A DNA stretch of 64,000 bases from the NCBI GenBank assembly GCA_934277945.1, contig CAKQWA010000002.1:98410-162409 (forward strand). Reading direction: 5' to 3'. The first letter of the stretch is position 1, and each line of letters starts with the position of its first letter. The DNA comes from an uncultured Alphaproteobacteria bacterium. Lineage in GTDB: Bacteria; Pseudomonadota; Alphaproteobacteria; CAAGCB01; CAG-977. This document shows positions 764-63,189 of this stretch, in pieces. The notes below the pieces were generated by a model that was given only the letters and a program-made list of their open reading frames with translations, was not told where the DNA came from and did no database searches. Position numbers and translations under genes: made by a program.

Positions 764-3700
764 TCAGTTGCTGAACACGTTGCTCAACAGCATATACAGC
801 CGTCCCGCGTCGCTGCTCAACAACACGTCGGACAGCACGTCGCCGCGCTCGGTTTCGCGGGCTTTGCGCAAAAGCGTGTCGAATTCGGCGGTGTATTTCG
901 ACACATAATCGCGGAATTCGGCGTTCTTGGCGAACAGTTCGGATAATTTGCGAATCTGCTGTTTGTCCAGCGACCGCGACAGATAGCGCACGAACGCGCT
1001 CCGGTCGCCGTTGTAATAGCGTTTCCACAAATCCGCCTCGACGTTCGGGTCGAACAGGCGCGCGATGTCCACGCCGAAAGACTGCAAATGCTCGGTGATG
1101 AACGTCGCGTCTTTCATAAAATGCGTCACGGAAGCGTCCTGTTTGCGCTTTTCCAAATCCTCGATGTAGTCCTGCGCGCCCTTTGACGCGTCCAGCAGAG
1201 CCTGCACCTGCCGCCCGAACGCGCCGCCCAGTTTCAGCGACTGCGCGGAAATTTTGTCGCCGGTGTCCAAAATCGTCGCGGCGTTTTCTTTCATCACGCC
1301 CAGCAAATCGTCCAGCCGTCCGACCGCCGTGTCCGCCGCCTGCGACAACACGTCGGACTGTTCGACGAACTGTTCGCCCGATTTGCGCACTTCCAGCGCG
1401 ATGCGTTCCGAATTGGACGCGATTTCGCCGATCATCGAACGCAAACGCTGTCCCGCCAAGTCGATTTGAATGACGCCCTTGTTCGACATTTCTTCAAATT
1501 CGGTTTCAATCTGGCTCACCGCGTCTTTCAGCAAACGCACGCTCTGCGCCGACGATTCCGCCATTTTCGTAAAGTCAGCCGCCCGCTCGCGCAACGACAC
1601 GCTCAACCCTTTGACCGCCTTTTGCGCGTCTTCGGAAATGCGGTTCAGTTGATAGGATTGGACAAGGAACGAATCGCCCGTCGCGGTCAATTCGTCGCGC
1701 GCCATGCTTCCCGCCGCCTGCATTTGCGCGGTCTGTTCGGCGAACACCTGCCCCGTTTTCTGCATGGAGGACACGACCGTCTGCGCGACTTCCGCCAGAA
1801 TCGCCGCTTTTTCCTGCAAGAACGCCGCCGCTTTCGTCGAACGTTCCAGACTGTCGGACGCCGCGCTTGCCGCTTCTTCGTTGCGCTGACGCAGATTTTC
1901 GCCCATCGCGTCCAACTCGAACCCGATGCGCGACGACGCGCCCAGCAAATCGTTTGTGTTCTGGCGCACCGCTTCGTTGATGTTGCGGATGTGCGTCATG
2001 ACTTCCTCGGCGGCTTCGCGCAAATAACGCGTCTGCTGCGTCAAAGCGGATTCGCCCAAACGCGACTGCGCGGACACGACGTTCGCCACGTCCGTCAGTT
2101 CGGTGATTTGCCGCTGCATCGCGTCGCGCACCATAATCGCCTGTTGGGTCGACTTCGCGGCGTGCTTCTGCAACGCGTCCGTCTGCGCCGTAATGCGCTC
2201 GTCCAAAGAATCGACCTGCGTCTTCAACTGTTCGGCGGATTCTTTGAATTCGTTGTGGCACCGCTCCATTTGCTCCGCCGCTTCGACCGCGCCCGCCGCG
2301 CTCGCTTTCAGCGACGTGTCGAACAAAGCCGTTTTTTCGGCAAGCAAATCGGAAACGCCGGTCAGCCGCTCTTTCAAAGAATCGCTCATGCCGGTCAGTT
2401 CGTCCGCCTGCTTCGTCAAGTTCTTGCCGACGCTTTCCAGTTTGCCCAAAGCGGTTTCCGTCGCGGCGGACAATTCTTTCGTCTGAACGTCCAAGCCCTC
2501 TTGCAGCAAACGCACGCGCGGCGCAAGACGTTCCAAATCCGCCTCCGCCTGTTCGGACTGCCGCCGGAGCAATTCCGACACGTCCGCCGCCTGCGCCGAC
2601 AGTTTGTCCGACGTTTCGGTCAGCCGGTTCTGCTGGCGGACAAGCAATTCGCCCAAATACGCCGCCTTGTCGTTCATGGTCACGGTGGCGGCGTCCGCGT
2701 TGTCGATGAAGCCGTGCGCGTTGTCGCACAAAGCGTCGAATCGCGCCTGCATTTCATCGACCGATTTTTGCAGTTGCGCGCACAGTTTTTCGGTGCCGTG
2801 CGCAATCAGCGCCGTGCGGCGTTCCGCTTCCGCCGCCAAAGCGTCCGAACGCTCTTTCAGCAGATTCTGTGTTTCGTTGAAATCAGCCGCGCGCCGTTGC
2901 AGCATTTCGTTCAAGCCGTCGCCGACCGCGCCGATTTTGCCCGCCGCGCCGTTCAGCCCGTCCGTCTGGCGCGCCAAAGTCACGTCCGCCTGTCCGATTT
3001 TGTCAAGCACGTCGCCGACCTGCTCGACGGTCTGCGACAGTCTTTCCGCCAGATTTTCAATCGACTGGCGCGTTTTGCCGTCCAAAGCGTCCGCCAGATC
3101 GAACAAAGTCTGCGCCTGCTGTTTCAGCGCGTCTTTCGTCTGTTCGACGTTGGCGGCGGCGGCGTCCAGATATTTCTGCTGACGGTTCAAAGAGGCTTCC
3201 GTCACGCCGGACTGCGATTTCAAAGCCGCGCTCAAATCCGACAATTCGGACATTTTCTGATTCAATCCGGTCGTCAGGTCTTTCGTCTTTTCGCCGCAAT
3301 CGTCCAGATGCGACGCGAAAACGTCCGCCGCACCCGACACTTCGTCGACGTAGGATTTGACTTTCTGCGCCGCGCCGTCCAGCACGCCGGACATCTTGTC
3401 CGCCGCGTCCGTCATCACGTCCGCCATGACCGCCGAGCGTTCGGCAAGCGATTTCACGCGCGCTTCCAGAACGTCGCCTTTCGCCGTCAGCGCGTCCGTC
3501 CATTCGGTCAGAGTCTGCTGCGAACGCGCGGACAGCGACGAAAGCGCCTCCGCCTTTTCGTTCAGCATCTGCGCCGCGGCGTCGATTTTCTCGTGCGCGT
3601 CGTCCGACACGCCGGAAATTTCGCCGACGTAGTTTTCCAAAGACGATTCGATGACCTTGAAGCGCGACAGGACGGTTTTGGTTTCCTCGTCCAGCAACGC

Positions 3701-4918
3701 GTTCTGTTTTTGGAAATTTTCAAGCACTTTCGACGCGGTGTCGTTCAGTTGCGCGTCGCGTTCGTCAAAGCGATCCGCCTGTTCGTCAAACACGGCGCAC
3801 AGATTGTCCGTCGCCTTTGTCAGATCTCTGCCGATTCGCGCCGCGCCGTCCATCGCGTTTTGCGTCGCCTGCGCCAGTTTGTCCGTCTGTTCGTCGACCA
3901 AAAGCGTCAGCGACGCGACGTTGTCCTGCAAGCGTTCCTGCATTTGCGTCAATTCTTCGGACTGGCGCGTGAAATCGGTTTTAATCAGCGCCGCCTGCTC
4001 CGTCATCAGTTCGCGCACGGATTGCGCCGTTTGCGCCAGCGACGCGTTTTGCGCCGACGCCGTCTGCACAAGGCGTTCGGTTTGCGCCGACATCAATTCC
4101 TGCGCCGTTTCGCCCGCGTGGGTCAGCAATCGGGTCTGTTCGCGCACCTCGTCCGCCACCGCGCGCGTGCGGTCGCCGATTTGCGCGTGCGCGTCGTTCA
4201 GCAAAGTCAGCGCGTCCGCCAAAAACGCGTGGATGCCGTCCGCTTTTTCGCGCGCCTTGTCCCCCGCCGTTTCCAAAGAATCGAGCGCGTTTGCAATCAG
4301 CGCGGCGTTTTCGTGCACTTGCGACGCCGTTTTTTCGGATTCTTTGGCGAACGCGGCGATTTTCTCGTCGACCAGCGCGGACGCGCTCAACAGGGAATCG
4401 TCGAATTTTTCGGACAATCCGCGCATTTCGCTCAACGTTTCGCCCAACCCGTCGACAATGCGGCGCACGTTGTCCTGCGCGCTTTTGCACGCGTTGTTCA
4501 GCGCCTGCGTTTCGTCGGAAATCTGCGTCAAAAGGGATTTCACATACAGTTTGTCTTTCGGCGACGGCTGAATGAACTGGCGCAAATAGTTGCGCAGACG
4601 CACCGCTTCGTCGTCGTAGCGTTTGTGTCCCGCGAAATAGATGACGACGAACCAAATCAACGCCAGAGGCATCAGCAGCCCCGCCAGAAAACCGACGTAT
4701 TCGGGCGGAGTCATGTCGTAGCGCGCGTCCCACCAGCCCGTTTGAGCCAGAAAATCGGCGGCAAGCCCCAGCCACGCGGCGCTGAACAGCGAGGCGACGA
4801 TGTTTTCCGTGCGCAAAATCCACGGCTTGAAGTCCGTCAAATCGACGGATTGGCGCGAAAACAGCGGCGAGCCGTTTTCGTCGTTTTTGCTGTTGCGGGG
4901 CGAAGTATTGTCAGACAT
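764..4918 (-). CDS. 1384-aa membrane-anchored giant coiled-coil protein (two N-terminal TM helices, ~1100 aa Ala/Gln/Glu/Leu-rich alpha-helical region, ~150-aa globular C-terminus); TipN-like polarity-factor architecture
   Basis: Single long ORF with protein-like composition. Hydrophobic segments IVASLFSAAWLGLAADFLAQ and YVGFLAGLLMPLALIWFVVIYFA near the N-terminus, followed by a continuous heptad-like low-complexity region. The 1160-aa ORF on the opposite strand (1466..4948) is an Arg/Phe/Val-rich antisense artefact. Confidence 0.7.
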   Translation of the reverse strand: MSDNTSPRNSKNDENGSPLFSRQSVDLTDFKPWILRTENIVASLFSAAWLGLAADFLAQTGWWDARYDMTPPEYVGFLAGLLMPLALIWFVVIYFAGHKRYDDEAVRLRNYLRQFIQPSPKDKLYVKSLLTQISDETQALNNACKSAQDNVRRIVDGLGETLSEMRGLSEKFDDSLLSASALVDEKIAAFAKESEKTASQVHENAALIANALDSLETAGDKAREKADGIHAFLADALTLLNDAHAQIGDRTRAVADEVREQTRLLTHAGETAQELMSAQTERLVQTASAQNASLAQTAQSVRELMTEQAALIKTDFTRQSEELTQMQERLQDNVASLTLLVDEQTDKLAQATQNAMDGAARIGRDLTKATDNLCAVFDEQADRFDERDAQLNDTASKVLENFQKQNALLDEETKTVLSRFKVIESSLENYVGEISGVSDDAHEKIDAAAQMLNEKAEALSSLSARSQQTLTEWTDALTAKGDVLEARVKSLAERSAVMADVMTDAADKMSGVLDGAAQKVKSYVDEVSGAADVFASHLDDCGEKTKDLTTGLNQKMSELSDLSAALKSQSGVTEASLNRQQKYLDAAAANVEQTKDALKQQAQTLFDLADALDGKTRQSIENLAERLSQTVEQVGDVLDKIGQADVTLARQTDGLNGAAGKIGAVGDGLNEMLQRRAADFNETQNLLKERSDALAAEAERRTALIAHGTEKLCAQLQKSVDEMQARFDALCDNAHGFIDNADAATVTMNDKAAYLGELLVRQQNRLTETSDKLSAQAADVSELLRRQSEQAEADLERLAPRVRLLQEGLDVQTKELSAATETALGKLESVGKNLTKQADELTGMSDSLKERLTGVSDLLAEKTALFDTSLKASAAGAVEAAEQMERCHNEFKESAEQLKTQVDSLDERITAQTDALQKHAAKSTQQAIMVRDAMQRQITELTDVANVVSAQSRLGESALTQQTRYLREAAEEVMTHIRNINEAVRQNTNDLLGASSRIGFELDAMGENLRQRNEEAASAASDSLERSTKAAAFLQEKAAILAEVAQTVVSSMQKTGQVFAEQTAQMQAAGSMARDELTATGDSFLVQSYQLNRISEDAQKAVKGLSVSLRERAADFTKMAESSAQSVRLLKDAVSQIETEFEEMSNKGVIQIDLAGQRLRSMIGEIASNSERIALEVRKSGEQFVEQSDVLSQAADTAVGRLDDLLGVMKENAATILDTGDKISAQSLKLGGAFGRQVQALLDASKGAQDYIEDLEKRKQDASVTHFMKDATFITEHLQSFGVDIARLFDPNVEADLWKRYYNGDRSAFVRYLSRSLDKQQIRKLSELFAKNAEFRDYVSKYTAEFDTLLRKARETERGDVLSDVLLSSDAGRLYMLLSNVFSN

Positions 4919-5161
4919 ACGCGTGCGCCTTACATAAAAATAAAGTGAAATCTGTTGAAAGATTCCATAAAACAGCCCGTGCCGTCAAGTCAAGTCGCGC
5001 ATTTTCTTCGATTTCGGGCGGTTGCGCGCGCAAAACGGCGGGCACGGCGGACGAATCGCGCGGACGAATCGTCATAACCCCGCCGATTTTCGATAAAATG
5101 ATTGACCTGTCAGCCCCCAACGGCTAAAAGAAAGACAATGGTATGAAAACAAGGTGGAAAA

Positions 5162-8391: not shown

Positions 8392-9066
8392 TCACTTCAA
8401 AACGGATTTCATGTAGCGCGGCGCGGTGTCGTCCGGCGCGGGCGCGGCGAACGGCTTTCCCGTCAAAGCGGACAGGGCGAGCGCGTATTCCGCGTCTTGC
8501 AGGCGCAACGCCTCGAAATTGTAAAGCACCATCATTTTGGCGCGCATATCGTTCAATTCGTCCTTGTCGTAGGCTTTTTTGTTTTTCGGGACAAGTTCGA
8601 CAAAGTACGAGTCGCGGTCGTATTCCATATATTTTGAATCGGGGAAAAGATCGATGACCGACGTGACGATGCCCGCGCCGTACGCCGTCGTCGCAATCGT
8701 CAGCAGGAACGGATAGCCGCACCCCGTCGGATTTTTGTCGCCGTCGTCGTCAAAGTGCGAATAAGCCACGCCCTCGCATTTTCCGGAAGAAACGTCCGTC
8801 GCGTACGAAAAAACGCCATGCCGCCGCCCTTTTTTATAATGCGATTCCGTCGGCAGAGTCACGGGCTTGTAGCCTTTTTTGCGCACGGAGATTTTCGCGC
8901 GGTCTTCGCCCGACACTTCGCGCATGAACGGCGTTTCCCCGACGATTTTATCGCCAACCCACACGTCCGCCGTCACGTTCGAGTCGATGAACACCCACTT
9001 TTTTTCCGTCGGCGCGCAGGCGCAAAGGGACAGCGACAAAATCAAAGATGTTAAGATTTTCCTCAT
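8392..9066 (-). CDS. lipoprotein with PEGA-like motif (224 aa)
   Basis: Signal peptide MRKILTSLILSLSLCAC with a Cys near the lipobox position. Motif DVWVGDKIVGETPF resembles a PEGA domain. Overlaps the upstream PEGA gene by 4 nt (operon). Confidence 0.6.
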   Translation of the reverse strand: MRKILTSLILSLSLCACAPTEKKWVFIDSNVTADVWVGDKIVGETPFMREVSGEDRAKISVRKKGYKPVTLPTESHYKKGRRHGVFSYATDVSSGKCEGVAYSHFDDDGDKNPTGCGYPFLLTIATTAYGAGIVTSVIDLFPDSKYMEYDRDSYFVELVPKNKKAYDKDELNDMRAKMMVLYNFEALRLQDAEYALALSALTGKPFAAPAPDDTAPRYMKSVLK

Positions 9067-11210
9067 TTCGCCCCCTTTTCAAAAGACAGACGGACGGACT
9101 TCACGTCGGACGCTTTCACGTTCTTAAAATAAATCGGCGTGACATACTGTTGCGGATTGGCGTTGACGCGCGGAACAAAAGCGACGGCGATTTTGCCTTT
9201 CGTTTCAAATTTCGACACGCCGAACAGAATCTTCTGCGTAATTGTCCGCCCGTTTTTCAGCGTGATTTCAATGACAAGCAAACGCTCTTTTTCATTCGGC
9301 ACGGACGTGTCGATCGCCAATTCCTTGGGCGCGATCAGCACGTGCGCGTCGGCATCCGTATCGGTGTTCGCCCGCGCGGCGTCTTTCAAATCCTCCAACA
9401 GCCAGACGGAACTGACGTCCTGCTTGTACGAGCGTTTTTCCATAATCGTTTCATAGTTTTTATCAACGCCCGCTTCGATTTCGTACGTGACGGTACGCTT
9501 TGGCAGTTCGTAGGACACGGCGCAGCGCTGATTCAGTTTCGGAGGCACTTTTTTCGCGCATTTCGGCACTTTTTTCCAAGAACATTTTTTCTCCATAATC
9601 GGCGTGTTGCCGTACCAGTGCTTTTCTTCGCCGACTTTCACGTCCCTGCATTCCTGCTTTTTCGTGTACGATTGTAGCAGGCAGTGCTTTTCGGTCGCGC
9701 CGGCGCACTCAAAAAGGATGTCGCCGCTTTTTTCCTTGAATTCAAGCACTTTTGCCAATTTCAGCACTTCTTTGACAAACAGGTTTTCGTACGCCGCGCC
9801 GTCAAAGAAAACGCGCGCGTAAACAACCAGATTGTCGCCGTCCTGCGCGTACGAAACCGCCGCCCGCAACAGATTGTCCGTGTAATCCCACTTCATCAGC
9901 GCTTTGACGTAATCGTTCAATTTCGCGGCGTTCGGAATGACGGGTCTTGTTTTGGGCAAAAGCGTCAGTTCAAATTCGTGATTCTTGTCCGTCAGCGGCG
10001 TGGCGACGTTGCGTTTCGCGCGCTTTTTCACGACCGGCGCGGGAATGTCGGCAAGCGGCGTTTCCTTGTCCAACAGCACAATGCCGGCGTAATCGGAATC
10101 TTTGGACAGAGAGGCGTGCACGGGCGCGGTTTGCCCGCCAACCGCCGTAAATTCGCCCTTTTCCTCCAAATATCCCGCTTTGTAGATTTTATAGGCGTGC
10201 CGTCCGCGCGCGATTTCCTTTTTCAGCGGTTTCGCGCCCGTTTCGCCGATTTTTTCGCCGTCAACGAAAACCGAAGCCCCTTGCGGCAGGGACGTAAAGG
10301 ACGCGAACGCGGATTTTTCGGTCATTTGCGCCATAAAAGTTTTGTTGTCGTCTTCGCGAGTCAACCCCGACAAAGACAGCGCGTATTCGTAAAATTCGTC
10401 GTTTTTCAGCACAATCGTATTATCGGTGTCCAGCCGGATTGTCAGCGTGCGGGGCGTATCGCCCTGCTTGACGCCGTTCAGGAAGATTTGCGCGTCCTCG
10501 CCGCCCGCCGTTTCGACATTGACGCGGATTTTGGCGACTTCCAACTGCGCGACGACCGCCGTCGTCTGTTTTGTTTCCACGGAGATTTTCTTGGAAAAGC
10601 GTTTGTAAAGCGGGTGGTCGATTTCCAAAACGTGCTTGCCGTTTTCCCAGTTGATTTTGACGTTGGATTTGTTTTGCGACACCAGTTGCCCGTCAATGTA
10701 AACGGACGCGTCGCGCACGGGGAACGTCGTCAAATCGACCACTCCCGAAGACGAACTGCGCACGCCCGCACTGTCTTTTTTCTCCGGCTTTTTTTCTTTC
10801 AGGCGTTTCTTTTCCGCCGCGATTTCCTTTTTGGAATACGAGCAAAGCACCCACGCCTCCCACGCGGTTTTGCCTTTCAGCGTGTACGTTTTTTCCGCCC
10901 TGAATCCGACCAGACGCGCCGCCATTTTCTCCGTCGAGTGCGCCGCCAGATCAACGGCGGACAAATCTTCGTACACGGACTGAAAATACTCGAACTCCAT
11001 ACCGAAATTGTCGGTAATGGCGCGTTTGACGGCGTTTGTTTCCGCGCCGTCCGACGCTTCCTTGCGCGTCTTGCCGTTCGCGTATCCGACGTAATACTTC
11101 GCCGTCGCGGAATCTTTGGGGACGCTTTCGACCCAAGCGGGCGCTTCGGCGGCGGCAAAAGCGGCGGGCGAAATCAACAAACTTAAAAACAGGGCTAAAA
11201 CGACTGACAT
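9063..11210 (-). CDS. secreted multi-PEGA-domain protein (about 715 aa from the Met of MSVVLALFLSLLISPAAFAAAEA)
   Basis: Signal peptide at the chosen start 11210; the ORF track start at 11378 adds an unlikely 56-aa extension. Three PEGA-like repeats (DASVYIDGQLVSQNKSN, DAQIFLNGVKQGDTPRTLTI, GASVFVDGEKIGETGAKPLK), an LPP20-like N-terminal domain, and a ~330-aa C-terminal region of unknown function. Confidence 0.65.
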   Translation of the reverse strand: MSVVLALFLSLLISPAAFAAAEAPAWVESVPKDSATAKYYVGYANGKTRKEASDGAETNAVKRAITDNFGMEFEYFQSVYEDLSAVDLAAHSTEKMAARLVGFRAEKTYTLKGKTAWEAWVLCSYSKKEIAAEKKRLKEKKPEKKDSAGVRSSSSGVVDLTTFPVRDASVYIDGQLVSQNKSNVKINWENGKHVLEIDHPLYKRFSKKISVETKQTTAVVAQLEVAKIRVNVETAGGEDAQIFLNGVKQGDTPRTLTIRLDTDNTIVLKNDEFYEYALSLSGLTREDDNKTFMAQMTEKSAFASFTSLPQGASVFVDGEKIGETGAKPLKKEIARGRHAYKIYKAGYLEEKGEFTAVGGQTAPVHASLSKDSDYAGIVLLDKETPLADIPAPVVKKRAKRNVATPLTDKNHEFELTLLPKTRPVIPNAAKLNDYVKALMKWDYTDNLLRAAVSYAQDGDNLVVYARVFFDGAAYENLFVKEVLKLAKVLEFKEKSGDILFECAGATEKHCLLQSYTKKQECRDVKVGEEKHWYGNTPIMEKKCSWKKVPKCAKKVPPKLNQRCAVSYELPKRTVTYEIEAGVDKNYETIMEKRSYKQDVSSVWLLEDLKDAARANTDTDADAHVLIAPKELAIDTSVPNEKERLLVIEITLKNGRTITQKILFGVSKFETKGKIAVAFVPRVNANPQQYVTPIYFKNVKASDVKSVRLSFEKGAK

Positions 11211-11356
11211 GGTACAAAATCCGGCAGTAAAAAACCGTTTGAGTATAGACCGATTTTCATACGCGGGCAACCGTATATAATCAAAAACGCGTCCCCGATT
11301 TCCCAGCTTAAAAAATCCGCGCATTCGTGGTGCAATAATAAAAAAAGGAGGCGCAA

Positions 11357-11665
11357 ATGGTGAATGTTCGTGAAACAAGAAGAATCAACATCCGCGAAAC
11401 AAACGAGGACGTGTTCGGACCGCCCGTCAATCCGCACGAAACCGCGCAATTCGTGAAAGACAAAATCGACGTGTTCACAATGAACGCGCCCGCCATGGTC
11501 GAAAAACTGCTGAAAGACGCGGAGGGCAACGCGGCTTTGGCTTTGCACCGGCTGATGCGGCATATGCACAACGTCGCGGCGGGAACGGCGCTGAACACGG
11601 CGTCGCTGAAACTGGCGAAAATCCGTTTGGAAGAAATGACGAAACAGGTTAAAAGAAAACCGTAA
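11357..11665 (+). CDS. hypothetical protein (102 aa)
   Basis: Strong RBS aaaggagg 7 nt upstream. Protein-like composition. Immediately followed by the cupin gene, suggesting an operon. Confidence 0.55.
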   Translation: MVNVRETRRINIRETNEDVFGPPVNPHETAQFVKDKIDVFTMNAPAMVEKLLKDAEGNAALALHRLMRHMHNVAAGTALNTASLKLAKIRLEEMTKQVKRKP

Positions 11666-14290: not shown

Positions 14291-16087
14291 TCAGCCGTCC
14301 TGATTTTTCATGAACTGAATGTTGTAGAGCATTTTGTAAATGCCGTCGCGGGACAGAAGTTCGGCGTGCGTCCCCTGATCGACAATCTCGCCCTCGTTCA
14401 TCACGACGATTTTGTCCGCGTCGACAATCGTGGACAGGCGGTGCGCGATGACAAGCACCGTGCGGTTTTTCATCAGTTTTTCAAGCGATTTCTGCACCGT
14501 GTTTTCCGAACGCGAATCAAGCGCCGCCGTCGCTTCGTCCAGCAACAAAATCGGCGCGTCTTTCAGCATCGCGCGGGCAATGGACACCATTTGCCGCTGA
14601 CCGCCCGACAATCCGCCCCCCTGTTCGCCCAACATCGTGTCGTAGCCGTCCTGCGCGCGCATGATGAAATCGTGCGCTCCGGCGGCTTTCGCGGCGGCGA
14701 TCACCTGCTCGTCGGTCGCGTCTTCGCTACCGTAGCGAATGTTGTTCTTAATCGTGTCGTTAAACAAAATGACGTCCTGCGACACATACGCCGTCTGTTC
14801 GCGCAGGCTTTTCAGCGTCACGGATTTGATATCCTGCCCGTCAATCAGAATTTCGCCCGCGTCCGCATCGTAAAAGCGCGGCAGCAGGTTGATCAGCGTC
14901 GTTTTGCCCGACCCCGAATGACCGACGAACGCGACCGTTTCGCCCGCGCCGATTTTCACCGACACGTCGCGCAAAACCTGATGCTCGCCGTCATAGGAAA
15001 ACGACACGTGCCGCACGTCGATTTCCCCTTTCGTCACGACCAGATCTTTGGCGTTTTCCGCCTGCACAATGGCAGGTTTGACGTCCAGCATGGAGAACAG
15101 TCGCTGCATGGACGCGACGCCCATCTGCATACGCATATGCAGATTCGCGACGTTTTTCATCGGCTTGTACGCCGCGACAATCGCCAGCAGGAACACCATG
15201 AAATTGCCGGGGCTCATGTTGCCCTGCATAATCTGATATCCGCCGTAGCCCAGCGTCGCCGCCATCGCGATGCCGCCGAAAAACTCCATCAGCGGACTTT
15301 GAATCGCGCCCAAGCACGCCATGGAAAACGACAGTTTGTTCATTTTGACGATCGTCTTGTCCAACTCGTCGAATTCTTTGTCTTCCATGCAGTACGACTT
15401 GACGATTTTAATGCCCTTGAAACTTTGGGTCAAAAGGTTGAAAAAGCCCTCTCCCGCCTCTTGATTGCGCTTTGTCTTTTTGCGCATTTTGCGCCCGCAC
15501 CAGACGACCGGATACACGCCCAGCGGAAACACGAAAAACACGACGCACGCCATTTCAAGCGACTGAAAAAACATCAAAATGACAAGGAAAATCACCGACG
15601 CGCTGTCTTTGACGAAAGTGGTCAGGCTGTTCAAAACCGCGTCTTTGACCATGGCGACGTCGGACGTGAAGCGCGTAATGATTTCGCCCGTCGTGTGTTC
15701 TTCAAAAAACGCGTTGTCCATGCGAATCAGGCGTTTGAAAATGTCCCGCTGCATATCGGCGATAACGCGGATGGACAGTTTCGTCATGACGACGGACTGC
15801 GAATAGGAAAACACGCCTTTCAAAAAATACAGCGTCAGAATCGTCAGTCCGATCGTTCCCAAAGCCGCGCGGTTCTTGTCGATGAACACTTCGTCGAACA
15901 CGGGTTTGAGCTGGCGCACCAAAAGCGCGTCGAAACTGGCGGCAATCAGCATCAGCACGACCGCGACGACCAGCCAGCGCCACTTGTCCGCCACATAGTC
16001 GCACCAGACGCGGCGGTACATCAGCATACTTTCTTTTGTTAAAGGGGGCAGGTCTTTATTCTTCGACTTTTTTAAAAACATACTCAA
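14291..16087 (-). CDS. ABC transporter, fused permease/ATP-binding protein (MsbA/lipid exporter-like, 598 aa)
   Basis: Six TM segments at the N-terminus; C-terminal Walker A GHSGSGKTT, ABC signature LSGGQRQ and Walker B ILLLDEAT. Confidence 0.9.
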   Translation of the reverse strand: MSMFLKKSKNKDLPPLTKESMLMYRRVWCDYVADKWRWLVVAVVLMLIAASFDALLVRQLKPVFDEVFIDKNRAALGTIGLTILTLYFLKGVFSYSQSVVMTKLSIRVIADMQRDIFKRLIRMDNAFFEEHTTGEIITRFTSDVAMVKDAVLNSLTTFVKDSASVIFLVILMFFQSLEMACVVFFVFPLGVYPVVWCGRKMRKKTKRNQEAGEGFFNLLTQSFKGIKIVKSYCMEDKEFDELDKTIVKMNKLSFSMACLGAIQSPLMEFFGGIAMAATLGYGGYQIMQGNMSPGNFMVFLLAIVAAYKPMKNVANLHMRMQMGVASMQRLFSMLDVKPAIVQAENAKDLVVTKGEIDVRHVSFSYDGEHQVLRDVSVKIGAGETVAFVGHSGSGKTTLINLLPRFYDADAGEILIDGQDIKSVTLKSLREQTAYVSQDVILFNDTIKNNIRYGSEDATDEQVIAAAKAAGAHDFIMRAQDGYDTMLGEQGGGLSGGQRQMVSIARAMLKDAPILLLDEATAALDSRSENTVQKSLEKLMKNRTVLVIAHRLSTIVDADKIVVMNEGEIVDQGTHAELLSRDGIYKMLYNIQFMKNQDG

Positions 16088-17172
16088 ACTTTCAGCAAAA
16101 ACTCTTTGGGGTCTTTCAGGGAAACCTGCGCTTCTTTCATATTTTCGACGGCTTTGTCAAGCAAGTCGTCCGGCGAACAGAACTCGTCGGGACCCGTCTG
16201 CGCCACGCCCATGCAGAACGCCACGCCGTACACGTTGCGTTTGCGGAATTTCTCAATCAGCCGGCGGCAGACTTTCGCCGCGTCTTTCGCGATCGCGTTC
16301 GGCATGATGACGACGAAATCGTCATAGGCGTAGCGGCACAAAATGTCCGTTTCGCGATAAGTGTCCGTCATCGCCGCCGCCATGATGTTCAGCAGGCGGT
16401 CGCCCGCGCGCCGTCCCTGCGCTTCGTTGAATTCGCCGAATTTGTTTAAATCGAAATACACGATCGACACGGGCCATTTGTGACGCTTCCCGTTGCCGAT
16501 TTCGCGATACAGATTGTCGTAAAAGCCGCGCTGGTTGTACAGGTTCGTCAGCGGATCCTTTTGCGTCAGTTCTTCCAGCGATTCGGTCATTTGAAACAGT
16601 TTCTTTTCCAAAGAATCGACATAGTGGCGCAAACGCTTTTCGTCCGTTTTGTCGCGCCCCGCCTCCGCCGCGCGAAAAGCGTCGACGATGACCGCGGTGT
16701 CCAGACGGAAAAAGCGGTCGAACGCCTTGACGGTCAGCAGGGCGTTTTCGCCGTCGCCCATGACGTGCCGGATTTCCGATTCCATTTTTTCCTGAACAAA
16801 CGCCAGAAACGGCATAAAATCTTTCGGATAAATCTCAAAACGGTGGAACAGACGCCCCCAGCGGTCGCGATCCTGAATATGCTCGGCGTCGCACGCGCCC
16901 TCGAAATAATCGCGCAAAAAATCGCGCATTTTCTTAGAAAAGGACTCCGCCGTGTACACTTCGCCCAGCAAGGCGCGCATCCCCTCGAACACGTCGAAAG
17001 CCGTCATCGTTTCCGCCGCCAGTTTGTCAATGCGCGCGAACAGAGCCGTGCGGTTCGTCGACAAAAGCGCAATGTCCGTCGACGACAGATTGAACATCTG
17101 CATCAGTCTGTCAGGTTCCAAAAAAGCGATGGAAACCTTTTCGGAGGGCAGTTCGTTTTCCATTCGATACAA
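16084..17172 (-). CDS. sensor protein with degenerate GGDEF domain (A-site RYAYDDF, I-site RETD intact); probable c-di-GMP binding, non-catalytic
   Basis: C-terminal GGDEF fold (LTNLYNQRGFYDNL...VSIVYFDLNKFGEFN...RETDILCRYAYDDFVVIMPN). N-terminal ~180 aa sensor region of unknown type. Confidence 0.75.
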   Translation of the reverse strand: MYRMENELPSEKVSIAFLEPDRLMQMFNLSSTDIALLSTNRTALFARIDKLAAETMTAFDVFEGMRALLGEVYTAESFSKKMRDFLRDYFEGACDAEHIQDRDRWGRLFHRFEIYPKDFMPFLAFVQEKMESEIRHVMGDGENALLTVKAFDRFFRLDTAVIVDAFRAAEAGRDKTDEKRLRHYVDSLEKKLFQMTESLEELTQKDPLTNLYNQRGFYDNLYREIGNGKRHKWPVSIVYFDLNKFGEFNEAQGRRAGDRLLNIMAAAMTDTYRETDILCRYAYDDFVVIMPNAIAKDAAKVCRRLIEKFRKRNVYGVAFCMGVAQTGPDEFCSPDDLLDKAVENMKEAQVSLKDPKEFLLKV

Positions 17173-59928: not shown

Positions 59929-62900
59929 TCACGAAGCCGCCATTGTTTGAAGCGACGGATAGTCGACCTTGCCCGAACTCAACAGCGGGATTTCGGCAAG
60001 AACGACGATTTTCGACGGCACGCCCAAATCGCTCAACCCCTTTTCGCGCACATATTTTTTAATCTCGAAAGCGTCGGCGTTTTCGCGTGTCGTGAACAGG
60101 ACGAGTTTTTCGCCCTTTTTCGCGTCCGCGACGGCGACGACGGCGTTCTGCGCGTCGGGATACAGCCCGTTGACCGTCCCCTCGATCGCGCCCAGAGAAA
60201 TCATTTCGCCGCCGACTTTGGCAAAACGCTTCGCCCTGCCCTTGATGAAAATGAAATCCTCGTCGTCGACTTCGACAATGTCGCCCGTGTCGTACCAGCC
60301 GTCCCTGACGGGTTCCAAAACGCGCGGATTTTCGGGGCGCATATAGCCCATCATGACGTTGCCGCCCTTTAACAAAAGCCGCTTGCCGTCCGTAATGCCC
60401 GCCGCCTCTTCCAGTTTGTAATCCAAAGCGGGAACGATTCGCCCGACGGAGCCGCGCCTGTTATACATGCGGGAATTGACGGAAATCAGCGGGGAACATT
60501 CCGTCGCGCCGTATCCCTCGATGACGCGGATGCAGAATTTCTCGATGTACAGTTTTTCGGTCGATTCTTTGAGTTTTTCCGCGCCGACGATCGCCAGCCG
60601 CAAACTGTAAAAATCGTACGGATGCGCCGCTTCGCCGTATCCGGCAAGGAACGTGTCCGTCCCCACGAGCACCGTCGCGTTCGTGTCGTAAATCAGTTCG
60701 GGAATGATTTTATAATGCAGGGGCGAGGGATAATACACCGTCTTGATGCCGTGCAGCGTCGTCATCACCGTCGCCATGCCCAATCCGAACGAATGGAACA
60801 TCGGCAGCGCGTTAAAGAAAACGTCGCGAGGATTCAGTCCCGCCGCCACGACGCCCTGATAGCCATTAATCAGGAAATTGCGATGGGACAACAAAACGGC
60901 TTTCGGCATACCCTCGGATCCCGACGTGAACAGGACCGCCGCCGCCTCGTTTGCCGTTCTGCGCGGCATCACGCGGCAAAAATACCGTCCCAGCCCCCTG
61001 ATTTTATCGCCGAGCGACAAAGACGCGGCGACGTCCTCCAAATACAAGATGCGGACGCCCGCCTCTTTCAGCGCCGATTCGACGTTTTCCAACTTGCCCG
61101 CCTCGATGAACGCGCGCGACGACACGACCGTGCGCACGCCGACGGCTTTCAGGCAACTCAAAATCTGCGCCGGTCCGCTGGAAAAATTCAGCATGGCGGG
61201 AACTTTGTCGGCGGCAATCAAGCCGAAGAACAGAACGACGTTCGCCAAGACGTTCGGCATCATCACGCCGACGTATTCCCCGTCACGCGTGCGGTTGGCG
61301 ATCGCGCCGCCCAGCACATAGCCTTTCAACAGCAAATCCTTGTAGCGCAAAGCGTGCCTTGACGCGTCTTCGGCGATTTCGCGGTTCGCGCCGAACGTGT
61401 CGCGCGCGTCCCACAACGCTTTGACAAGGTTGCGGTTCGCGTTGAACGATTCGACCAGCATCCGCGTCATCATGCGATACATCTGCAACGACACGGCGTA
61501 GTTGCGTTTGCGCTTGTCCGCCGTTTGAGAAACCTCCAATTTCCGCGCGGGCATGATTGTCAGGCGGATTTTCGGCAGCCAGCGGGTTTTATGCTGTTCT
61601 TTCTGCAAGGAAAATTTGGAATACTGCGCGCCGGAAATGCACACGGGAAGCACGGACGCGTTCGCTTTTTGCGCCATGACGCCGACTCCCGCGTAAATTT
61701 TCATCAGCCCGCCCGTCACCGCGGAACGCCCTTCCGGAAACACCAGCACTTTCGCATTGCTTTTCAGCAAGGCGATCAGCGGGCGCAAAGCCATCGAATC
61801 CTTCATATCCAGAATATGCACGTCGGCGAACAGCGAACAGGCGTATTCAAAGAAACTTCTTTTGCGCGCGGGCGGCAGGACGACGGCAATGCGTTCGGGC
61901 ATGAAAGCCGCAATCAGCAGCGCGTCGATGCTTGACATATGGTTCGCCGCAATCAGCACGCGATGCCCCGATTCCAAGAAATGCCGCTGTCCCTTGACCG
62001 TGACGTGAAACAGGATTTCCAGCACCGTGCGCACCAGCGCGCGCTGAAACGACGCGGGACTGATCCGGCAGTTGTAAATCAAAACGCCCGCGCCCAAGAC
62101 CGCGCAGAACGCGAAAATCGCCCCGACGGGCATCCCGTAGCGATAACGTACCGCCGTCAGAATCAGCGCAATCAAAAAACACGCGAGATTTAAAAATTTC
62201 GTCGCCACGACCAAAGCCTGAAAATTGCGTTCCCGCACTCGCGTGCGCAGAGCCAGCGACAAGGGGAGCACATACATCCCCGCGCAAAACGCGTTGCCGC
62301 TCCACAAAATCAAAGAAGCGGCTTTGGCGGCGACGCCGTCGTACATCGACAAAACAGCCAAAACGGACAGGCACAGCGTCATGCCCGCGGTGTTCAGCGG
62401 CGACAGCGTGAAATCCAGAATCTGCCGCGCCAGCCGCTTGGCGTAGGCGCATCCGCCCCAAAAAGAAAACGCGGCGGAAAAAATCAAAACGTTTTCAAGC
62501 AAAACATTCCCGTTCGTCAGCGCGTCGACATTAACCAGCAGCAAGTATCCCGTCGCCCACATCCAGCTGATGCCGAACGACGCGCGGCACAGCACGGCGT
62601 ATTTGCGAATCTGCGCGAAAGAGGATATCACCCGGCGCGCGCCGATAAAGCGCATATCCGGCTCTTGCCTTTTTTCAAAAAACGAGGCGAGCGTCCGGAC
62701 GGCGCACAAGGCGGTCATCGCCGCCAAAGCGGTTTCAACCGACAAAACCGACCCGCAGAGCGACCCCGCCAGCATACTGGCGTATGTTGAAAAACGGCGG
62801 TAGTCGCGATTGAAAAACGCTTCGCCGTTTTCGGCGTCAAAGGAAACGGGCGCGCGGAACAAAGACGCGGCGACCCCCGCCCCCAGCGCAAGCGTCACGG

Positions 62901-63189
62901 GCAAAACGGGCAGATATCCGGCATACGCCGCCGTCATCAGCGCGAACAGGACGGTTTCCGCGCCGCGCAACAGGCGGCTGTTTTTCATGAAAACGCTTTC
63001 TTTCGCCGCGAACAGCAAAAAAACGAACATAAAGAAGAACATCGGCAGAAAATCGGCGCGCCCCGTCGCGCGATACGCTTTCAAAGCCATTAAAATTTCA
63101 GCAAAGCACAACAAAATGCGCACGTTCACAACCGATAACAGCGAATGAATCACTTTAAATTCCCCCTTTGGCGATTTTTGGAAATACAA
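59929..63189 (-). CDS. aas: tripartite fusion: polytopic membrane (LplT/MFS-like) domain + PlsC-type acyltransferase + acyl-ACP synthetase (Aas-like), 1086 aa
   Basis: N-terminal ~380 aa with multiple TM helices. HX4D acyltransferase motif ANHMSSID with PEGRS. C-terminal AMP-binding motifs TSGSEGMPK, GYGATE and GWYDTGD. The first ATG (63189) is taken as start; downstream ATGs are possible. Confidence 0.8.
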   Translation of the reverse strand: MYFQKSPKGEFKVIHSLLSVVNVRILLCFAEILMALKAYRATGRADFLPMFFFMFVFLLFAAKESVFMKNSRLLRGAETVLFALMTAAYAGYLPVLPVTLALGAGVAASLFRAPVSFDAENGEAFFNRDYRRFSTYASMLAGSLCGSVLSVETALAAMTALCAVRTLASFFEKRQEPDMRFIGARRVISSFAQIRKYAVLCRASFGISWMWATGYLLLVNVDALTNGNVLLENVLIFSAAFSFWGGCAYAKRLARQILDFTLSPLNTAGMTLCLSVLAVLSMYDGVAAKAASLILWSGNAFCAGMYVLPLSLALRTRVRERNFQALVVATKFLNLACFLIALILTAVRYRYGMPVGAIFAFCAVLGAGVLIYNCRISPASFQRALVRTVLEILFHVTVKGQRHFLESGHRVLIAANHMSSIDALLIAAFMPERIAVVLPPARKRSFFEYACSLFADVHILDMKDSMALRPLIALLKSNAKVLVFPEGRSAVTGGLMKIYAGVGVMAQKANASVLPVCISGAQYSKFSLQKEQHKTRWLPKIRLTIMPARKLEVSQTADKRKRNYAVSLQMYRMMTRMLVESFNANRNLVKALWDARDTFGANREIAEDASRHALRYKDLLLKGYVLGGAIANRTRDGEYVGVMMPNVLANVVLFFGLIAADKVPAMLNFSSGPAQILSCLKAVGVRTVVSSRAFIEAGKLENVESALKEAGVRILYLEDVAASLSLGDKIRGLGRYFCRVMPRRTANEAAAVLFTSGSEGMPKAVLLSHRNFLINGYQGVVAAGLNPRDVFFNALPMFHSFGLGMATVMTTLHGIKTVYYPSPLHYKIIPELIYDTNATVLVGTDTFLAGYGEAAHPYDFYSLRLAIVGAEKLKESTEKLYIEKFCIRVIEGYGATECSPLISVNSRMYNRRGSVGRIVPALDYKLEEAAGITDGKRLLLKGGNVMMGYMRPENPRVLEPVRDGWYDTGDIVEVDDEDFIFIKGRAKRFAKVGGEMISLGAIEGTVNGLYPDAQNAVVAVADAKKGEKLVLFTTRENADAFEIKKYVREKGLSDLGVPSKIVVLAEIPLLSSGKVDYPSLQTMAAS

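Follow-up and report, generated by a model that had tools for sequence, protein, structure and literature searches.

A giant membrane-anchored helical-rod protein from an uncultured alphaproteobacterium as a distant relative of GPR and RgsE

What kind of protein is encoded by the giant gene next to ileS on a contig of an uncultured alphaproteobacterium (CAKQWA010000002.1, positions 98,410 to 162,409, a stretch of 64,000 nucleotides (nt) that we call the window)? A first-pass annotation of this DNA had likened the product, a predicted protein of 1384 amino acids (aa), to the polarity landmark TipN of Caulobacter, and had allowed that it could equally be a cytoskeletal or scaffold protein. It is the second of these proposals that we judge to be right, and we also agree with the architecture as first read, with two transmembrane (TM) helices, a long cytoplasmic helical rod and no enzymatic motif. 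From sequence comparisons we conclude with high confidence that the gene encodes a distant and divergent member of the superfamily of GPR (Atu1348, Agrobacterium tumefaciens) and RgsE (SMc00190, Sinorhizobium meliloti). The best explanation of the protein as a whole, which we consider probable, is that it is a membrane-anchored rod of this superfamily acting as a sub-membrane scaffold.

The open reading frame (ORF) has exactly the coordinates and length that were first given for it. Among independent gene calls in public assemblies are 1384-aa versions of the product with 99% and 90% identity; a more distant full-length homologue, 56% identical, has 1382 aa. The GC content at third codon positions (GC3) is 0.767 in this frame, compared with 0.771 in ileS. 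The protein is rich in Ala, Leu, Asp, Glu, Ser and Gln, and contains 10 Pro in total, of which only P800 lies within aa 121-1290. The layout that had been described, i.e., two TM helices followed by a long cytoplasmic helical rod and a small C-terminal domain, is also borne out. The gene and its parts are as follows (HMM, hidden Markov model; AF2, AlphaFold2):

764..4918, minus strand: whole gene, with ATG start, 1384 aa and stop codon at 764-766
4469..4846, minus strand: N-terminal anchor module, aa 25-150 (hhalign, HMM, alignments)
4745..4807, minus strand: TM1, aa 38-58, with a family-invariant Trp (Kyte-Doolittle scan and alignments)
4628..4702, minus strand: TM2, aa 73-97, motif GFLAG..P.ALIW, with a family-invariant Pro (Kyte-Doolittle scan and alignments)
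1142..4591, minus strand: helical rod, aa 110-1259, ~46 in-register 25-residue repeats (spectra, autocorrelation, AF2/DSSP)
770..1135, minus strand: conserved all-alpha C-terminal domain (C-domain), aa 1262-1383, ~122 aa (profiles, AF2, homology to GPR)

The relationship to GPR and RgsE is apparent at both ends of the protein. In BLASTP comparisons, the C-domain (aa 1269-1380) is 33% identical to the last ~115 aa of GPR (E-value 2e-14) and 31% identical to the orthologue from Rhizobium sp. Leaf262 (E 2e-17), and the N-terminal part of the window protein (aa 17-632) also aligns colinearly to the Leaf262 orthologue (E 2e-7). HMMs built without any Rhizobiales sequence recover GPR as well, at 87.7 bits for the C-domain and at 26 bits (E 6e-8) for the anchor. 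When the anchor profile of window-like and Rhodospirillales sequences is compared with that of GPR and Rhizobiales sequences using hhalign, the two align over 110 columns with a probability of 97.2% (E 3e-11). Scores of this kind can be raised artificially by TM segments, but the invariant Trp in TM1 and two Pro, one in TM2 and one juxtamembrane, all coincide in this alignment. Because the anchor and the C-domain both match, the two terminal modules are homologous to those of GPR. The GPR sequence was taken from a machine-read copy of Fig. S3 of Zupan et al. 2021 (PMC8262873), which yielded 2099 of 2115 residues. Over its full length it is 61% identical to the Leaf262 ORF, which in turn matches PF01442 at 173 bits and has a proline-rich linker 120-230 residues before its end.

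The likeness extends to overall organization. GPR and RgsE share with the window protein two N-terminal TM helices in a homologous anchor, a bulk that is cytoplasmic and includes more than 1000 residues of continuous helix, and a homologous domain of ~115-125 residues at the very C terminus. They are longer (2115 and 2089 aa, respectively, compared with 1384 aa), and they organize polar growth in their hosts, both Rhizobiales, whereas the present protein comes from an uncultured alphaproteobacterium. At the growth pole, GPR is arranged in a ring of foci. It cannot do without its C terminus: a 221-residue C-terminal deletion kills both function and polar foci, although some C-terminal truncations still make foci (PMC8262873). 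RgsE is cytoplasmic and membrane-anchored, with a topology that was verified experimentally, and it interacts with TolQ (by two-hybrid), RgsA and RgsS (PMC7327166).

The anchor module consists of TM1, a short periplasmic loop (WW...PPE), TM2 and a juxtamembrane helix that extends up to a conserved Pro. In a Kyte-Doolittle scan, the loop between TM1 and TM2 is 14 residues long and TM2 is followed by seven Lys/Arg. Given this Lys/Arg-rich stretch behind TM2, both ends of the protein face the cytoplasm and the bulk of it is cytoplasmic. An N-in/C-in hairpin of two TM helices thus fixes the protein in the inner membrane. The motif held in common with more distant matches is a W in TM1 followed by P.E.GGFLAG..P.AL.W, and two N-terminal hydrophobic helices are found in nearly all full-length genomic family members.

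The C-domain had been estimated at ~150 aa, which is too long; the conserved part is ~122 aa. Its invariant residues are F, E.L, D, W..Y..G, F, EFR, Y, F and D.G..Y, and AF2 models it as a six-helix bundle with a predicted local distance difference test (pLDDT) score of 79. It has no match in Pfam, in NCBIfam or among PDB sequences, and a Foldseek comparison of the model with the PDB gave a best E-value of 0.41. A clear similarity of this domain to an unrelated family, e.g., a phage tape-measure protein, would speak against a landmark or scaffold, and no such match was seen in these searches. When the whole protein was scanned against Pfam and NCBIfam, all that emerged was coiled-coil noise under the thresholds (Apolipoprotein, SMC, ZorA and ATG17).

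Between the two modules lies the rod, for which the expected heptad signal is missing. In a Fourier analysis of aa 110-1260, hydrophobicity has a single sharp peak at a period of 3.574 residues with a power of 18.5 (shuffled maximum ~1.3), while the power at the canonical period of 3.5 is at the level of noise (0.14). The observed period equals 25/7. Consistent with this value, a BLOSUM autocorrelation of the rod has similarity peaks at lags of 25, 50, 75, 100 and so on up to 275, and when the sequence is written in rows of 25, a single register is kept over 46 rows (~1150 residues) with no indel. The hydrophobic core positions of the 25-mer are 3, 7, (10/11), 14, 18, 21 and 25, i.e., 7 of 25 positions, and their spacings (4-3/4-4/3-4-3-4-3) sum to 25 = 7+7+11, or three heptads plus a stutter. 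Gly is enriched at repeat position 22 and Asp/Glu at position 23, and the net charge of the rod is -62. Charge zoning with a 25-residue period, such as serves staggered packing in myosin rods, is absent from the rod, in which the one harmonic present is the seventh, i.e., the amphipathic signal.

A structure prediction of aa 185-1384 with AF2, read with DSSP, has three giant helices (566, 382 and 114 residues) and a small terminal helical bundle, but at a mean pLDDT of 47.5, so low a confidence that only the secondary structure of the rod is usable. Together with the coherent amphipathic periodicity of aa 110-1259, this low-pLDDT model indicates more than 1000 residues of continuous alpha-helix. 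The rod had been described as an uninterrupted coiled coil. The long, unbroken helix stands, but a heptad coiled coil does not, since the periodicity is 25/7 and not 7/2: this is a helical rod of non-canonical, regularly stuttered periodicity. The coiled-coil literature recognizes 25/7 as a class of periodicity. The 25-residue core spacing resembles that of other non-heptad coiled coils with regular stutters (18/5, 25/7 and 11/3 periodicities), from which this rod differs in that its pattern runs for ~1150 residues without a phase break. Background on delocalised stutters in coiled coils is available (PMC9369452).

How widely are such proteins distributed? The C-domain profile finds 742 proteins in a word-indexed database and 2096 representative clusters in an exhaustive database at 50% identity. 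In the best-scoring 150 of the 2096 clusters, the domain is at the extreme C terminus, and the full-length proteins among them have 650-1500 aa. Shorter entries with a C-domain appear to be fragments. In one long-read assembly (L001:6442-8609), the family gene is broken by a frameshift into calls of 520 and 202 aa, and most of the other short matches that look like stand-alone C-domains are on contigs of a few kb, and are hence probably fragments too.

We also built by hand a degenerate DNA pattern for the invariant residues of the C-domain, which matches the window once, with zero matches expected by chance. In a collection of species-representative genomes it matches at least 120 loci. Assigned to orders by record title, the loci listed include ~34 in Sphingomonadales, ~43 in Rhizobiales/Hyphomicrobiales (including Rhizobium, Neorhizobium, Mesorhizobium, Methylobacterium and Bartonella) and ~10 of Rhodospirillales type (including Azospirillum and Thalassospiraceae), as well as Rhizomicrobium, Parvibaculaceae, Micavibrio and metagenome-assembled genomes (MAGs) from ruminant gut. 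None of the matches listed is from Caulobacterales or Rhodobacterales. In Rhizobiales, the C-domain ends ORFs of 1500 to more than 2300 aa. Two contigs binned in MAGs labelled "Mycobacteriaceae" (L024) and "Patescibacteria" (L105) carry clear family members, probably through contamination of the bins.

The family thus includes Sphingomonadales, Rhodospirillales, Micropepsales, Parvibaculales and uncultured gut lineages. GPR and RgsE have so far been treated as a speciality of Rhizobiales that is tied to polar growth, and "more distant" homologues of RgsE outside that order were reported only in Emcibacterales and Rhodospirillales (Krol et al. 2020, PMC7327166). The two conserved ends of GPR, i.e., the TM-hairpin anchor and a C-terminal domain that is unrecognized by any domain or structure library searched, define a far wider alphaproteobacterial family of ~2,100 clusters at 50% identity. 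Knowing which residues are conserved gives a handle on the role of the essential GPR C terminus, and the wider family suggests tractable models outside Rhizobiales.

The rods are of more than one kind. The window protein and its close relatives have a period of 3.56-3.58 with lags of 25n, and so do the gut MAGs, several groups that are unclassified and the Rhodospirillales, Azospirillum among them. For GPR and eight of its orthologues from Rhizobiales, the period is 3.62-3.67 (3.64-3.67 in all but one) and the lags are mostly 11, 22, 33 and so on. As judged by the periodicity of its sequences, the family is divided cleanly into an apolipoprotein-like 11/22 type and a 25 type. The short forms in Sphingomonadales (~770-900 aa) have weak or mixed periodicity, and their anchors are not matched by the anchor HMMs.

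The length of the rod is also conserved. Counted from where the anchor HMM ends to where the C-domain HMM begins, it is exactly 1111 residues in both the window protein and its 42%-identical homologue, next to which lies an isoleucyl-tRNA synthetase (IleRS) that is 87% identical to that of the window. It is exactly 1053 residues in six other members (five representatives of 50%-identity clusters and one genome locus) and exactly 910 in nine cluster representatives. From these sequences, indels in the rod appear not to be tolerated. Such strict conservation of phase and length suggests either that non-equivalent segments must match, as in a staggered, antiparallel or ring-closing assembly, or that length is itself functional; a 25/7 rod with no phase break and of exactly conserved length points to an assembly that depends on length or register. 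Across the family as a whole, the distances from anchor to C-domain are quantised at 1111, 1115, 1053, 910 or 558 residues and are fixed within subgroups despite low identity; subgroups do not differ from one another by multiples of 25.

A bolder proposal would be that the family is an ancient, pan-alphaproteobacterial, membrane-anchored cytoskeleton, in which the form outside Rhizobiales is a molecular ruler of fixed length and GPR is a derived, expanded version with 11/22 repeats that was recruited for polar growth. Its basis is that lengths of 1111, 1053 or 910 residues are kept within subgroups whose members have diverged to ~40% identity or less. If it is true, a strictly phased strut of 25-residue repeats would fix one of the physical dimensions of a structure beneath the membrane at the pole or septum. 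We put this forward as speculation, with the chances rather against it.

What might the protein do? By analogy with GPR and RgsE, and with moderate confidence, we propose a scaffold beneath the membrane that serves envelope growth, division or polarity. The rods would pair with their own kind or with a partner through the narrow, nearly straight and continuous hydrophobic seam, giving a long, weakly supercoiled, non-canonical coiled coil that would measure ~170 nm if fully extended, and the resulting assembly would build the scaffold. The C-domain, by analogy with GPR, could be the effector or partner-binding end. The TM hairpin, by analogy with RgsE, might couple the scaffold to envelope machinery, perhaps components of Tol-Pal or of the divisome. 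The role would then be to mark or shape a zone of envelope growth, division or polarity. Polar growth is not known from Sphingomonadales or Rhodospirillales. Because the family occurs in these orders too, the role need not be polar elongation of the kind seen in Rhizobiales.

It is important to consider several points that weigh against a GPR-like scaffold. The rod repeat is 25 residues (period 3.574) in the window protein but 11/22 (3.65-3.67) in Rhizobiales, and PF01442 scores 30.3 bits (cut-off 90) in the former compared with 173-240 bits in Rhizobiales orthologues. The window protein is without the proline-rich linker of ~110 aa that precedes the C-domain in Rhizobium orthologues (L063 and L065), and its gene, unlike those in Rhizobiales, does not adjoin an Mla/MCE operon. 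The GPR sequence that we compared is an optical character recognition copy with errors (the 2099 of 2115 residues mentioned above). Any predicted geometry of assembly has to contend with a monomer model of the rod whose mean pLDDT is 47.5. Finally, function is not safely transferable at 20-33% identity, and a different role for RgsE homologues outside Rhizobiales has been suggested by Krol et al. (PMC7327166).

The alternative that survives best is a TipN-type landmark, either a homologue or a functional analogue, which the divisome or Tol-Pal would deposit at the new pole and which would recruit flagellar and ParA-related clients. The positioning of TipN is reported, in work attributed to Yeh et al. 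2010, to depend on Tol-Pal. Like the window protein, TipN (CC1485, Caulobacter crescentus) is a non-enzymatic landmark or scaffold with two N-terminal TM helices and a long cytoplasmic coiled-coil region (PMC4085708), and the binding of TolQ by RgsE, a homologue of the window protein, also fits such a landmark (PMC7327166). However, the comparison with TipN, which is ~500 aa shorter, is one of architecture only. The Caulobacterales have no representative among the at least 120 C-domain motif loci as listed, and those distant RgsE homologues that were reported outside Rhizobiales were confined to Emcibacterales and Rhodospirillales (PMC7327166). A scan of roughly two dozen of the larger ORFs in the window turned up no flagellar or tipF-like gene, and a TipN model, sought with NCBIfam in nine family members, matched none of them. 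The label "TipN-like" is therefore apt for the architecture, with its two TM helices and large cytoplasmic helical region, but it denotes a resemblance, whereas the demonstrable relative is GPR/RgsE (C-domain E 2e-14, anchor 97%). We consider a TipN-type landmark unlikely.

Less likely again is a lipid-surface protein in the manner of apolipoproteins or perilipins, the amphipathic helices of which would lie flat and unpaired on the membrane or on lipid inclusions. The long amphipathic helix of short tandem repeats does recall the exchangeable apolipoproteins (PF01442; ApoA-I/A-IV/E), for which there is a sub-threshold Pfam match of 30 bits at aa 492-639. GPR has itself been classed in PF01442, with a proposed role in lipid handling (PMC8262873). 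The 25/7 period gives an almost straight hydrophobic stripe, and family genes adjoin Mla/MCE or MsbA-like lipid transporters in many genomes. On the other hand, the match is well under the PF01442 cut-off (30 compared with 90 bits), and the window protein differs from the exchangeable apolipoproteins in being membrane-anchored and acidic, with a repeat of 25 rather than 11 or 22 residues and no proline punctuations. The rod's net charge of -62 is unfavourable on anionic bacterial membranes, hydrophobic residues at 7 of 25 positions make the narrow seam that is typical of coiled-coil cores, and there is no Mla operon in the window. These points make a lipid-surface role distinctly improbable.

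A protein of a mobile element or defence system, i.e., a phage tape-measure, a ZorA-like motor tail or an SMC-like protein, is barely credible: the weak matches that favour it (phrog_167 tape-measure, 40.7 bits; ZorA, 16.6 with a cut-off of 250; SMC, 33.5 with a cut-off of 567) are all far under their cut-offs and confined to the low-information helical rod, the C-domain matches no PHROG, there are no ATPase heads, ZorB or phage genes, and the neighbours are core housekeeping genes (ileS, rpoH, rpoA, secY, tuf, fusA, SUF and dnaB), so that we rejected all three identities on account of sub-threshold rod matches and housekeeping context.

The membrane-anchored scaffold of the GPR/RgsE superfamily is thus the reading we prefer, and the remaining observations concern the surroundings of its gene. 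Two further features need to be distinguished from the gene itself:

1466..4948, plus strand: antisense mirror ORF of 1160 aa, not a gene (composition and codon-position GC)
4919..5161, no strand: divergent intergenic region shared with ileS, with a sigma-70-like site and presumably both promoters (consensus matches only)

The opposite-strand ORF is present and as Arg/Phe-rich as the first-pass annotation had said (Arg 20%, Phe 11%). Its GC content is 0.758 at first codon positions and 0.617 at third positions, a mirror image of the real frame, and it is a codon-aligned antisense artefact.

Upstream of the giant gene is the divergent ileS. Downstream, on the same strand, is a sigma-32 gene (rpoH; NF005143, 268.6 bits, cut-off 241) that runs off the start of the window. 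This confirms the neighbour that had been named, but rpoH was not seen beside the family gene in any related locus and so tells us nothing about function. Among genomic loci, the nearest relatives of the giant gene come from an unclassified MAG, at 42% identity, and from a MAG of sheep colon, at 28%. Synteny with ileS was rejected as a guide to function as well: ileS is adjacent only in the closest MAG.

In the intergenic region, a 12-nt direct repeat, GCGGACGAATCG, occurs in two copies 13 nt apart (~5047-5071, plus strand), each with a GANTC. The three GANTC (CcrM) sites in the 243 nt of the promoter region are not a significant enrichment, as such a number is seen in 4% of windows, and the region has no CtrA box. 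Rfam and tRNA scans found nothing near the gene.

The window as a whole is ordinary chromosome, with ileS, rpoH, a PEGA-domain pair, an MsbA-like exporter, a globin-coupled GGDEF protein, rpoA, secY, tuf, fusA, SUF, tkt and dnaB. The MsbA-like ATP-binding cassette (ABC) exporter (14291-16087, minus strand; TIGR02203, 574 bits, cut-off 602) is 9.4 kb from the giant gene. An ABC exporter is directly beside the family gene in three distant loci (L009:2704-4560, L070:382-2226 and L056:3925-5850). By score, two of these three are MsbA-like, and the one in L009 is 40% identical to that of the window. This may hint at a recurrent link of the family gene to lipid export.

A lipid-transport operon of Mla/MCE type lies tail-to-tail with GPR-class genes in 32 loci among L016-L120 (e.g., L031:1449-5459, L051:654-4956 and L085:2656-6236), in Rhizobiales families, Parvibaculaceae, Rhodobiaceae and some unclassified alphaproteobacteria. 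The operon encodes MlaE with a STAS domain, an ABC ATPase, MlaD with a long helical tail and an ABC_trans_aux lipoprotein; none of these genes is found within the window.

Three other loci in the window deserve mention. A 224-aa lipoprotein-like ORF (8392-9066, minus strand) overlaps by 4 nt the start of a 771-aa PEGA-domain protein (9063-11378, minus strand), and the pair has no family match other than PEGA. Just downstream of the MsbA-like exporter is a globin-coupled diguanylate cyclase (Protoglobin plus GGDEF; 16084-17172, minus strand). A 1086-aa fusion of acyltransferase and AMP-binding domains (59929-63189, minus strand) resembles Aas, the acyl-ACP (acyl carrier protein) synthetase/lysophospholipid acyltransferase.

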